Of a DNA stretch of 64,000 nucleotides, positions 44,449 to 48,575 are shown in pieces. The notes beneath the pieces are model-generated. The model was not told the origin of the DNA and searched no databases. It saw nothing but the letters and a program-made list of their open reading frames with translations. Position 1 is the stretch's first letter, and each line of letters starts with the position of its first letter. The translations under genes were made by a program, and so were the position numbers. The stretch spans positions 3,286,001 to 3,350,000 of the forward strand of contig CDLV01000004.1 in NCBI GenBank assembly GCA_001244265.2, in the 5' to 3' direction. Source of the stretch: Microbotryum violaceum (taxonomy: Eukaryota).

Positions 44449-47400
44449 GGGACCCCCGAAAGCCCAGCCGGAGGCGCTTTTTTTTTTTTTTGACATTTTG
44501 AGGACCCAAAATCCTGAAAATCGTCGAGGCGCATCGCAAAAAATTGACATTTTGGGACGAAACACACGTTTCGCCCCCGAGGCGCATGCCCAGATTTTGA
44601 CATTTTCCCGTGAGTCGGCCCAATTTTGGCCTACCCTGAGCAGCCAGCCTACGGCATCGCTTTGGGCCCGTTTGCCTTCGCTTCGAAACGCGCTTCGCGA
44701 TGCTCGCGCCTGAACAAGTCACTAGCCATTTTCGCTAATCACTTTAGTTCAGTGGCTGTTAGAGAATATTAAGGATTAGATACCCCTATCGAGTAAGATA
44801 AAAATGACGGGGCCCCTGAGGTTCCGTTCCGCTTCACTTCGTTCTGACACTGGAGCATAGCACGACGAAATGATTCCATGCTTGTTTCTTGACGAAGATC
44901 AGGACTACTATTTGCACGACGATGACTTTGATCGATTATCGCCGCTCACCAACATAACGGTTGCCGAGCTCCTCGCCTTCGATGTCGCTCCCGCCGACGC
45001 GTCTCTTCACATCGAGTTGTCCAAAGACGAGCCCACCCAGCATTCGAACTTACCCTACCCGACTCTTCAGACCAGAGATGCGTTTCTCGCTACCGATGCT
45101 CTGATCAATGCACGCAAGCCAGGATATCGATCTTTGGCCGTCGGGTCGACGTGTTTGCCGCTCGGCGCCGATCGGCTATGGTCAGAGTACGAGCGAGCAA
45201 AAGACGTTCAAAGCTGGGCGCTGCGAGCTCAACGATGGATGGACAAAATTATCGTTATCAACGAAATTGACCGCAACCGTATCGCTGTCGCACGTCGCAT
45301 ACTGAACGGATTGCAATGGCAAGAGCAAGACGGGCTTCTACCATTGCCTCTTCTTGCAAATGGAACGAGTTTGGTTTATCTCCTGAAATTCTTAAGTTAT
45401 TACACCAATCCTTCAGCTGGCCATTTGTATTCATCTCGTATCTGAGGCAACTTGCTTATTCGCGTCTCTACCCAGGTCATGATTGGCTCGGTGAAGCCGC
45501 GGTGAACTTGTCAATTGAAAGCGTCCTTCGAGCCGGACGAGTGCAGAATCCCGATTTCGAAACATCGTATGGACTTATACCCTCCACCGTCATCTCTTTG
45601 GTAATGGCTCGCCGTCCCGACTCGGATCCTCATTCGGTCTTCAAAGCCTGCTTTTTCGGCCCGCCAAACCAGTATCGGAATCTCATCGAGCTAGGCGAAT
45701 GCATGCGCAACACGCCGACGTCAAAGTCAATCTGGTTTCTACCCCTCTGCTCCGACAGTCATTGGGTCCTGGCCCGCATCAACACGCACAAGCGGACATG
45801 GTCTATGATCAACTCACTCTCCGCCACTCCGATCACCGCGGCTACTCGGACGGCCGTCCTTACGCTATTCAAATTTCTGAAGCTGGACATCAAAAACGAG
45901 TTCCCTCATACTCCTAAGGCGGAACAACAGGAAGACAGCTACTCGTGCGGGCCGGCTACGATCAATGCAGTGGAGACGGAGGTGCTCGGGATTGGGTCAT
46001 TCAACGCAGCGCGCGCTCACATGTCACGGCTCCGTCAATTCTGTCGTTTATCCTCTCTGGTTGGTGCTGTCGAGGATCCCAAAGAGATCGAATCCATCGT
46101 TGCCACGGGCGCAAAATCAAAGGCAAAGTCTGGGAGGGGATCCGCTGCCGGAATACTGAGCAGCAAGAGCACGTCGGCAGAGTTCGGCAAGGCAGCGACA
46201 ATCAAGCCAACAAATCAACGAGTCGCATCATCCTCAAAAAACCCGCCAGCTTCTCGACTTCAAACGACCTTCACCAAGGTATCGAAGCCGACGAAAGCTC
46301 GAGAGCTCACCCCGAGGAGCATACGACGTGGGCTCACGACCATCCGCCTCTTTTCAGGAGGTTTGCTGAAAAAGTCAAAGATCTTTGCCCGGGATCGAAT
46401 GTCAACGTCAACAATCCAAAGTACGTGCGGTGTGGACGTTGTTATGTCTTGGTTCCAATGGCGGCCTTGCTGTACAAGGCACGATTTCAATTACTTCTCG
46501 GCAATAAGAAGTGTGTCAACCCCCAACCCATCAGCAATTTCTTCAGACCTATCGCCTCTGGCTCAACTGCTACCAGCCCCTCGCTAGGACCGTGCCCCGG
46601 CCTTACGTCTGAATCGGCGATGCATTATCTTTCATCAACTGCGGCGCAGGGTGGCGGGGCCCCTCCTCGACGGACGCTTTGTTTGCGCCTCTATCCCAAA
46701 ATTGGTAAACGACCAATGACGGAGCTCGAGAGGAAGGAGGTGGACAAATTGGAAGCGAATGAATGGAAGTGGCGCAACGATCATCGAGCACCGCGCATCA
46801 TCAGTGTGAATTCTCGCAAGTATAGCGCTCGAGATTCGATCAACAAGGACGGACCAAGCTTACCGTGTGAAGAATGCGCGAGGCTTCCTAAGGATTCATC
46901 CTGTCGAGCAGCTCTTCGACGTCAATATGCTGCTGGCGCAAGTCGCAAATACACCAACAAGAAATATGTCGCGGGCGATACACTTCTCTCGGCCATCTAC
47001 CGGCGACATCATGGACTAGAAGAGATCCTGGATGACAACGGTCAAGGGACCGTGTATCTACGATTCGCGCAAGGTGTGGCCTCAGGAGAATTTGACGGAG
47101 CGAACATCTTGGAGGGATTGGTGAAAGCGGCTACGGTCAAGCACGATCGGATGGTCAAGGGCAAATCGATGCGAGGCTTTGTGCAGTCCGAAGCGCTGCG
47201 TGACTTCGAGCAAGCCATGGCGCTGGCGTCTCCGATGGCTCTGAGAGTGCTGCAGGCTACAATCGGCGCATCCACAAGCCGAAAACTGCAGTGAGTACTG
47301 TCATTCTTTCGTTCCTTCAATTCAACCTCATACTGAATGATCGAGGTGCTTGCAGAATGGACCGAGCGACATCAGGCAGGATGCGCCTCGGCCTCGACAA

Positions 47401-48575
47401 GTCCAACATGGATCGTGTCTGCGCGAAACTCGAAGCAGACGGCCTAACGTTCAATTTGCACGTAGACGACACGAAGTGTCGATCCAGGATGCGAACCACT
47501 CCACACTACTCAGAAGACCTCAGTTTAGAGCGCGAACTACGTACAAAGGGCATATTCCGCCACGAGCTGATCGGATCAATTGGTCCGCCACGCATCTACG
47601 AAACTCCGGGTGAACTCCCTGATATGTTCAGCGGACCTGACCCCCGGTTGCTGGAACCAAAGTGAGTGACAATGATTCTTTTAAGCTTGTACTTCATTTC
47701 CACGAGGCTTTAACATGCGTCGCCTCTTCATTCAGATCCGAGCTTACATGATAGCACCGAACGATGTTGGCTCCCCAGCACAGGTGTTTGCCGGTTTTGT
47801 GATCGGCGAAACTACGAACGCGGAGGACGTGACCGAACAGTTACATTCAGTGATACAAGAATTAATAAAACGTTGCGTCGCACACCTTCTGGTATCCATC
47901 TCCGCAGATGGTGCGGCAAGCGAGGGTGTGCTGCAATGTAATGTTGCCGTCCTTTTGCGCGATCAGGGTGGCGCTGTTGCTCAAACCGGATCAAGGAACG
48001 CGTCATCATACACCCTCCCCTCCCCAGATCTGGACGGAGTGTTTCCTGAGATCACTATATCGACCGTCAACGTCGCGGAAACGCCGATAGTCTTCTGTCG
48101 GGACGAAAAACACCTGGCCAAATGTCTGAGGAACGCTATCGACTCTGGAGCAAGATTGCTGTTCGGTGGTCTCGGATGCATTGCCTACCAGGATATGCTC
48201 ACCATCCTGGGCGGACTGGAGTCGCGTCGTACTCTGTCTTGTCGTGATGTGGTCGGGCGTGATCGTCAAGACAACAATGCAACACATCGGGCATTCTCCA
48301 AGGCGACGCTCGAACTCGTAACCGAACTCGCTGAAGACAAAAAACTCGACCCCGATGCGGTCGTATATCTCTTCTTATGTGGCGAGTTACACGATGCCAT
48401 CCAGAACCGGTCGCTTCAGCCCCTTGAACGTATCAGGATGTTGCTCGTTGTCAGATATACGTTCGAGGCGTGGTATGACTTTGTCCGAAGTCGCCCCGGA
48501 TCTAGCTCTCACTCGTTCCTCGCCAAAGAAACGCTTGATGGGGTCAGGAAGATGGTTGACTCAACGATTGCTCTG
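44449..48575 (+). mobile_element. Coding copy of the family-1 P-like transposon, 3' part replaced by a LINE
   Basis: TIR GGGACCCCCGAAAGCCCAGCCGGAGGCGC at 44449, homologous to the 2146 end and followed by a long spliced ORF. Confidence 0.85.
44870..48575 (+). pseudogene. Ulp1/C48 peptidase-like domain + Cys-rich region + P-element/THAP9-like DDE transposase (frameshifted, truncated)
   Basis: Protease motifs DWLGEAAVN, SHWVL, INSL, QQEDSYSCG. Transposase motifs LHVDDTK, ISADG, RDEKHLAKCLRN, DRQDNNATHRAFS. Likely introns at ~47291-47356 and ~47662-47735. Confidence 0.7.

Follow-up and report, generated by a model that had tools for sequence, protein, structure and literature searches.

A probable P-superfamily transposon lineage of fungi with a SUMO-protease-like module at the front of its transposase

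The Drosophila P transposase and the vertebrate THAP9 proteins (structures 6P5A, 6PE2) combine a helix-turn-helix (HTH) region with a split RNase H domain bearing the catalytic D, D and E, a helical insertion domain being placed between the last strand and the helix of the Glu and a D..H..K..RN motif following the last strand. The elements have short terminal inverted repeats (TIRs), target-site duplications (TSDs) of 8 bp, introns in the gene and internally deleted, non-autonomous derivatives. The P transposase is 751 aa long, and the THAP domain is typical of animal members without being superfamily-defining. All these features except THAP and the protein length are shared by the transposon family described here, one copy of which lies at positions 44449-48574 of a stretch of 64,000 nucleotides from Microbotryum violaceum (assembly GCA_001244265.2, contig CDLV01000004.1, positions 3,286,001 to 3,350,000 of the forward strand), hereafter the window. 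In contrast to P and THAP9, no THAP was found in the fungal family, which has another Cys-rich domain at that place and an added N-terminal Ulp1-like protease; furthermore, its protein of ~1,500-1,850 aa carries a long C-terminal tail, its termini read AGGACCCC and the identity is ~14%.

The association of Ulp1 with transposases has precedents. Zisupton also has an Ulp1 domain together with a DDE transposase. An Ulp1/C48 domain beside or fused to a DDE transposase is described in the pertinent sections of PMC2836005 for KI-MULEs of plants and Ginger1 of Hydra. These Ulp1-carrying transposons belong to other superfamilies (Mutator, Ginger, KDZ) and have the domain in scattered families, whereas here it is found in nearly the whole lineage; moreover, in Ginger1 it is C-terminal, in contrast to its N-terminal position in the fungal family. 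As for P elements of fungi, the subphylum Pucciniomycotina comprises both the rusts and Microbotryum. According to the relevant text of Cantu et al. 2011 (PMC3164196), the rust-fungus P elements P-1_PSt, P-1_MLP and P-2_MLP, with 8-bp TSDs, are held in Repbase. Compared by description only, they share with the present element the P superfamily, the TSD length and the subphylum, and therefore a fungal P-like element is not new by itself. The corresponding part of a 2017 survey (PMC5751038) counts 17 fungal P entries in Repbase, from Pucciniales and Allomyces only, with Pfam-based profiles detecting 11. We found no description of a fusion between a P-like transposase and Ulp1 in fungi in the open full-text literature, Repbase Reports, subscription journals and supplements lying outside the search.

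The placement of the element comes from the fold of its transposase core. The related protein P0010 is 59% identical to the window exon 4, and its AlphaFold2 (AF2) model has a mean pLDDT of 73.9, with values >85 over residues 20-530. The best Foldseek match of this model was the Drosophila P transposase 6p5a_A (E 1.4e-12, TM on the target 0.63), the next fold being that of Hermes (3.1e-4). VIA-align superposed model residues 21-533 on chain residues 128-560 with a Z of 28.4 and an rmsd of 5.5 over 396/442 residues, a span that begins in the HTH (chain residue 128), takes in the insertion domain and reaches residue 560; the folds that followed were Transib (12.8), RAG1 and Tn5 (both 11.1) and Hermes (10.3). 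GTP, bound by the insertion domain, serves as the cofactor of P transposase and is its biochemical hallmark; the superposition shows the fungal insertion domain to agree with that of P in fold. An exhaustive fold search with a second model, that of P0011 (MVLG_00147), again returned 6p5a first (Z 18.1). In the protein atlas, P/THAP9 Pfam families stood in nine of the ten named rows listed when searched by features (best score 0.95), and the search by structure gave TM values of 0.70-0.77 to THAP9-type clusters. When 53 family members were scanned at E <=10, the sole transposase families matched were PF21787 (six members, best E 0.0081) and PF12017 (two members, best E 1.1e-4).

The catalytic residues are almost invariant across alignment A1 (D138 in 59/59, D139 in 58/59, D261 in 68/68, E504 in 57/60 and E507 in 57/59 sequences). 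The family consensus comprises five blocks, namely CDDTKL, SYAxDGTxxE, QDSKHALKTxRNN, then DRQDDN with GELxDAYQNR in a helical region, and PWLHSTExCEHxFGxxR. The window copy retains both Asp motifs and lacks the catalytic Glu through truncation, while relatives have an E..EH.FG..R helix ~25 codons past the truncation point. The catalytic residues of P transposase are D230, D303 and E531, as stated in the part of PMC7776569 that deals with them. From the superposed residue ranges we infer that the family Glu helix (E504/E507) sits where E531 of P transposase lies.

Three other superfamilies were considered and rejected. Hermes, of the hAT superfamily, likewise makes 8-bp TSDs and has a helical insertion domain in its RNase H core; however, its fold match was far weaker (Z 10.3 vs 28.4 for P; Foldseek E 3e-4), and no hAT Pfam family, including the dimerisation domain, appeared in any scan. 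Pfam includes KDZ transposase and CxC models. No KDZ/CxC family was met in the Pfam scans, among the 11 families matched by the 53 members at E <=10, or among the listed atlas neighbours. Kolobok duplicates TTAA at its target sites; all 12 TSDs seen here are 8 bp long and none has TTAA. The assignment to P in the earlier note on this DNA is supported, as against hAT, KDZ and Kolobok, by the Z values (28.4 vs <=12.8), the Foldseek E-values (1.4e-12 vs 3e-4), the atlas and the weak Pfam signals limited to P families. Taken together, we consider it very probable that the element represents a divergent P-superfamily lineage of fungi, with a SUMO-protease-like module at the front and P-like cut-and-paste transposition.

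The protease module was recognised by Pfam as Peptidase_C48 (PF02902) on 45433-46584 with an E-value of 2.1e-5 and 24.9 bits, above the cut-off of 20.7, which bears out the C48-type protease proposed earlier. A profile of 69 family members matches yeast Ulp1 (1euv) at E 1.8e-15 and SENPs at ~1e-13, and residues about 145-380 of the P0011 model gave Z values of 15-18 to NEDP1, SENP3/5/7 and Ulp1 (2bkq, 9gnn, 7r2e and 1euv). In the window, the catalytic positions are His 45760-45762, Asn 45811-45813, Gln 45928-45930 and Cys 45946-45948. A phmmer alignment of a close relative with the fungal Ulp1-like SUMO protease 6dg4 places INS of the element on LDS of the enzyme, i.e. Asn for the catalytic Asp. 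Among the aligned relatives, His is conserved in 40/41, Gln in 40/40, Cys in 41/42 and Asp in 31/41, the non-Asp residues at this position being Asn (6), Ser (2), Arg (1) and Leu (1). The six Asn carriers were reported as five Microbotryum proteins and Phenoliferia P0022, with one further protein also reported within the six. It should be added that some CE-clan proteases have Asn at the position of the catalytic Asp. Conservation of these residues at an overall identity of 20-25% argues that the protease may well work for the element.

Protease and transposase appear as parts of one gene. In the window, a single exon (exon 2) encodes both the C48 domain and the Cys-rich/HTH part, and among the relatives of at least 1,300 aa, 41/43 have the Ulp-like domain and the transposase in the same order. 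In metagenome contigs, a scan recovered 80 loci (41 of >=5 kb), among which 16 have AGGACCCC and GGGGTCCT termini 5.6-7.7 kb apart around the match and hence are complete elements. In all 16, the Ulp1-like domain at ~0.9-2.9 kb is followed by the P-like core at ~2.9-6.1 kb on one strand; open reading frames (ORFs) tile these elements with short gaps, and the in-frame stops seen after the protease in three of them lie inside GTAAGT..CAG introns. The shared exon, the long relatives and the complete elements support the earlier claim that the Ulp1-like module belongs to the same gene as the transposase.

The complete metagenome elements also inform on mobility. An exact 8-bp TSD flanks 11/16 of them, and in 10/11 of these cases the ninth base differs. 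The earlier note had suggested looking for intact copies with such TSDs across the genome; here, the search covered the window itself, protein databases, public runs and metagenome contigs. The fusion (16/16), the shared termini and, as seen from the TSDs, an 8-bp stagger thus mark the lineage as a whole. As a side observation, the TSDs of elements L006 (6376 bp) and L037 (6290 bp), TTTGACAG and GTTGACAG, are almost identical; both may stem from a single insertion in related genomes, or the element may prefer targets resembling its own subterminal motif.

As to distribution, an exhaustive phmmer search with exon 4 yielded 392 clusters at E <=1e-3. With the exon at 46248-47291, nine related proteins were listed, the best four of which, all from Microbotryum silenes-dioicae, are 93-97% identical. 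The 20 named family proteins that were looked up came from Microbotryum, Phenoliferia, Naganishia and many Agaricomycetes, and none from a rust. Judging from these sequences, the arrangement is common to a large element family across mushroom-forming and related fungi. In a second search, the only relative not closely related was P0161 from the arbuscular-mycorrhizal fungus Rhizophagus irregularis (849 aa), which matched the core at E 6.5e-12 with 26% identity over the whole query; therefore, the lineage may reach beyond Basidiomycota.

Several results weigh against the placement with P and against the reading of the element as a mobile fusion, and they are gathered here. The structures were predicted for relatives 59% (P0010) and about 48% (P0011) identical, not for the broken window protein. 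The window exons matched none of the P-family models of Pfam (PF21787, PF21788, PF21789, PF12017 and PF12596) significantly, the further scanned proteins of relatives gave no P-family Pfam match, and P0010 matched no family at E <=10; 6p5a was not reached in a sequence-profile search of the PDB with the family profile. Since the sequence matches to P models are weak or absent, the link to P rests mainly on predicted structure. Moreover, fold searches cannot rank KDZ, Kolobok and several other superfamilies because these lack a solved structure, and so the exclusion of these comes from the absent Pfam KDZ matches, the atlas result and the TSD only. THAP was matched neither in 12 relatives at E <=0.1 or 0.01 nor in five ORFs of complete elements at E <=1. 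Five of the 16 complete elements (L002, L004, L018, L025 and L028) are without a TSD, their flanks having 5-7 mismatches at 30-nt TIRs that agree in 28-30/30; we suspect chimeric assembly of a multi-copy element. Two of the five look like one and the same sequence. Coordinates and flanks are shared by L018 and L028; L025 is like them in length and in the placing of its domains and differs in its flanks. Within the window, none of four other termini (30014, 31194, 34126 and 41608) pairs with a matching 8-bp flank. None of the public runs on record as RNA contains the element, the spliced contigs being from a guessed-RNA run, and the protease activity of the Microbotryum lineage is uncertain because Asn replaces the catalytic Asp.

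The marginal sequence similarity to P/THAP9 could be explained if the family were a separate, unnamed superfamily sharing with P only an ancient fold, plus an 8-bp stagger reached by convergence or descent. Eight weak Pfam matches in 53 members, the absence of a PDB sequence match, an identity of 14% in the structural alignment, the missing THAP, termini (AGGACCCC) unlike those of P and a protein twice the size of P with extra N- and C-terminal domains are all consistent with it. However, the Z of 28.4 over 396/442 residues includes both the HTH and the insertion domain, as compared to ~10-13 for other superfamilies with an insertion domain, the weak Pfam signals are solely those of P families, the atlas neighbours are P/THAP9 and the TSD length is equal, so that we regard a separate superfamily as improbable; it should be added that superfamily rank is partly a convention. 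That protease and transposase are two genes, fused only by gene predictors with the protease as a host-captured passenger, might be suggested by the unreliability of predicted models in multi-copy elements (in those of M. silenes-dioicae, part of the core is read in a wrong frame) and by the fact that no contig of the guessed-RNA run covers both domains. Nevertheless, the C48 and the Cys-rich/HTH-like parts lie in one window exon with no stop between them once a 1-bp deletion is allowed for, their order is the same in 41/43 long relatives and 16/16 complete elements with intervening stops confined to canonical introns, and no ATG-initiated second ORF with an upstream region of its own is apparent, which leaves this explanation very improbable.

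A further explanation, in which the sequence would be what is left of a domesticated, THAP9-like immobile family of host genes, has a precedent in the domestication of THAP9-type genes in animals, as the passage on this subject in PMC7776569 has it, and many relatives are annotated merely as hypothetical proteins. Against it stand the TIRs, the 8-bp TSDs, the derivatives with internal deletions and the presence of many copies in a genome; the four best relatives come from one species at 93-97%, two of these clusters hold eight and nine sequences, the summed contig depth is high, and the flanks of complete elements differ across many contigs. We find a domesticated origin scarcely credible. The preferred reading hence remains a mobile, P-like element with a protease in the same gene.

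The anatomy of such an element follows from the sequences and folds, and the mechanism is proposed. An intact copy is ~6.3-6.9 kb long, is bounded by AGGACCCC...GGGGTCCT inverted repeats, makes 8-bp TSDs and contains one intron-containing gene of about 1,500-1,850 codons. The protein begins with a small conserved domain, followed by the CE-clan cysteine protease, a disordered linker, the Cys-rich domain and a P-like HTH; the catalytic RNase H-like domain (Asp, Asp, Glu), interrupted by the helical insertion domain, comes next, and the long tail forms the C terminus. The transposase would bind subterminal sites and TIRs, excise the element and insert it with 8-bp staggered cuts, as P does. The protease would be catalytically active in most members and serve the element, most likely by freeing the transposase, or host chromatin or repair factors, of SUMO or another ubiquitin-like modifier, and less likely by cleaving the transposase itself. 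The idea in the earlier note that the module might counter SUMO-dependent silencing is speculative. In our assessment, taking SUMO or a related modifier off these proteins has a roughly even chance of being the role; a non-catalytic or some other role appears less probable, and self-processing of the long polypeptide would be more doubtful still.

In a broader and only tentative reading, which we consider rather unlikely as a whole, an ancient P-like lineage, present throughout Basidiomycota and possibly beyond, as the one Rhizophagus match hints, has kept a catalytically intact Ulp1 protease fused to its transposase during all of its diversification, along with invariant AGGACCCC termini, and the lineage, its termini and its architecture would all be undescribed so far. 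If true, removal of SUMO/ubiquitin-like modifiers would be an integral step of transposition or of escape from silencing, rather than an occasional captured passenger. Ulp1-like proteases have been acquired repeatedly by unrelated superfamilies, and here the protease is established throughout an old lineage of wide distribution. Conserved catalytic residues, elements of ~6.5 kb, sharp termini and many apparently intact copies in culturable, transformable fungi would make the question of the protease testable. Furthermore, the P superfamily, best known from animals, would extend to a large fungal clade missed by current Pfam models, and such elements therefore probably go unclassified in fungal genome annotations or are labelled there as 'ubiquitin-like protease' genes.

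The relation of the protease to THAP deserves a comment. The earlier note had the Ulp1-like domain standing instead of THAP, and this does not hold, as the protease is an addition at the N terminus, after which come a linker and then a Cys-rich domain at the position of THAP. In the P0011 model, a disordered linker (~383-545) separates the protease from a folded Cys-rich part (~550-680, pLDDT roughly 80-90) that precedes the HTH. Because this folded domain occupies the THAP position before the HTH, the protease is to be seen as an added module and not as a substitute for the DNA-binding domain. In the window exons, Pfam gave no THAP match at E <=1. The Cys-rich domain was blank in Pfam, the atlas search returned no usable match to it, and the whole-model fold search barely covered it; it probably binds DNA.

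The features of the window copy, of its sister copy and of the adjoining LINE sequences are collected in the table.

Table. Coordinates of the element at 44449-48574, the sister copy and the adjoining LINE sequences in the window
Feature	Position	Strand	Remarks
8-bp target-site duplication CTCTGGGC, left copy	84..91	.	exact match to right copy
Sister copy (copy A)	92..2146	-	internally deleted; ~570 bp of 5' end and ~1.4 kb of coding/3' end (tblastn)
8-bp target-site duplication CTCTGGGC, right copy	2147..2154	.	exact match to left copy
5' terminal inverted repeat, GGGACCCCCGAAAGCCCAGCCGGAGGCGC..	44449..44479	+	first base G, A in other copies; homologous to sister-copy TIR
Three subterminal TTTGACATTT copies	44489, 44543, 44596 (44489..44605)	+	spacing 53-54 bp
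Exon 1: start codon 44870, N-terminal domain before protease	44870..45395	+	conserved in relatives; folded in P0011 model
Intron 1, GT..AG, 80 nt	45396..45475	+	one X18 contig joins 45395 to 45476; joint absent in DNA run X1
Exon 2: Ulp1/C48-like domain, low-complexity linker, Cys-rich domain, start of HTH-like region	45476..47290	+	deletion after 46309; C48-like about 45481-46050, Cys-rich 46431-46880, HTH-like from 47055; motifs DWLGEAAVN 45481-45507, SHWVLA 45757-45774, MINSLS 45805-45822, EQQEDSYSCG 45922-45951
Intron 2, GT..AG, 65 nt	47291..47355	+	one X18 contig, 97 letters on shorter side; joint absent in X1
Exon 3: HVDDTK (47459-47476), motif of the first catalytic Asp	47356..47661	+	deletion after 47640
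Intron 3, GT..AG, 74 nt	47662..47735	+	predicted only from gene models of relatives; no joint among run contigs
Exon 4, truncated: second catalytic Asp, DEKHLAKCLRN, helical insertion domain	47736..48574	+	stops ~25 codons before catalytic Glu helix; motifs SADGAASE 47901-47924 (Asp 47907-47909), DEKHLAKCLRN 48102-48134; in insertion domain DRQDNN 48261-48278 (DRQD 48261-48272), GELHDAIQNR 48381-48410
LINE fragment adjoining element	48575..53240	-	endonuclease part 49167-50144; without reverse transcriptase and 3' end
Fuller LINE copy	~53300-58985	-	reverse transcriptase at 53367-55061

The copy at 44449-48574 corresponds to the 5'-terminal 4.1 kb of a DNA transposon of ~6.5 kb with a 31-nt TIR starting (A)GGACCCCCGAAA, and its 5' end reads GGGACCCCCGAAAGCCCAGCC. 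The sequence GGACCCCCGAAA has six exact matches in the window, among ten at <=2 mismatches; the five exact copies beyond that at 44449, at 93, 2145, 30015, 31193 and 41609, have A as the first base. The subterminal motif TTTGACATTT has 16 matches in the window where 3.64 are expected, 16 being reached in 0/100 shuffles, and 12/16 matches are, as read from their coordinates, no more than about 200 bp away from an element terminus; these repeats are candidate transposase-binding sites.

All motifs named in the earlier note are present in the implied frames, including the Asn in INSL and the Cys-rich block. Its description of a TIR-bounded, spliced ORF has to be corrected in that this copy has the 5' TIR only and that its ORF is broken by two deletions besides the truncation. 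Comparison with contigs of public runs located 1-bp deletions after 46309 and after 47640, where other copies have an extra C, and both hence shift the frame. Past 48574, the contigs of all four public runs go on with sequence that encodes ..ALVRNYRDFWPE in the same frame, in agreement with the relative P0010. No GGGGGTCCT terminus was found downstream within the window, where the C-terminal third of the protein gave a tblastn match nowhere except in the sister copy at 92-2146. The copy is thus a dead, 3'-truncated remnant of an autonomous cut-and-paste transposon.

It should also be added that of the runs used, X1 is a DNA run, and for X8, X17 and X18 an RNA origin is no more than a guess. 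Spliced contigs, covering introns 1 and 2, came only from X18; X8 and X17 gave none, and X17 lacks cover over parts. Another X18 contig departs from the window sequence at 44338 and runs on into the 12 bases preceding the 5' end (44437-44448), then into unrelated sequence that was not found within the window; a copy of the flanking repeat lacking the element could account for it. The M. silenes-dioicae gene models P0001-P0004 (window 48254-48633) leave the transposase frame after ..RDV, misread the region from DRQD to the Glu and then return, so that automatic annotation hides the catalytic core of those copies. P0007 (1763 aa, same species), a relative 36% identical, has a C-terminal Helitron helicase-like N-terminal domain (Pfam E 2.3e-28), and this fusion is probably a gene model crossing two nested elements.

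Both TIRs of the sister copy, at 92-122 and 2116-2146, are 31 nt long, and they are 90% complementary. Its exact 8-bp TSD, as noticed earlier, is CTCTGGGC on the plus strand and GCCCAGAG on the strand of the element, and it belongs to the only terminus pair in the window. With only the 5' ~570 bp and the 3' ~1.4 kb kept, the sister copy is a non-autonomous derivative. Contigs of runs X8 and X1 break at 45052 into sister-copy sequence, and this breakpoint shared by two runs indicates that the deletion derivative exists in other genomes or copies.

At the 3' side, two LINE copies, about 75-79% identical, lie head to tail on the minus strand, and in contigs of public runs other LINE copies extend 'before' 48575. 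The earlier note held the Glu to be missing because a LINE replaces the 3' end. Loss by truncation stands, as other copies continue in frame; a simple replacement by the LINE does not, the LINE being itself 3'-truncated. Since the LINE piece has neither its own reverse transcriptase nor its 3' end, the 48574/48575 junction is a rearrangement joining two truncated elements and not a simple LINE insertion. A piece of the same LINE, 98.5% identical, is found at 31195-32130, directly adjoining another element terminus.

The window is dense in nested repeats, and recognisable host genes are few. A second, non-coding repeat family, which shares the AGGACCCCCGAAAGCCCAGCC terminus and has TTGGACATTT subterminal motifs, occupies 30014-31194, 33863-34126, 41608-43032 and 23303-24512, the last being a reverse repeat of 41843-43032 at 94% identity. 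The four termini of this family in the window are those left without a matching 8-bp flank. Copia-type gag-integrase polyprotein ORFs and a reverse-transcriptase fragment are situated at 60814-63393 (-), 12799-14862 (+) and 42609-43685 (-).

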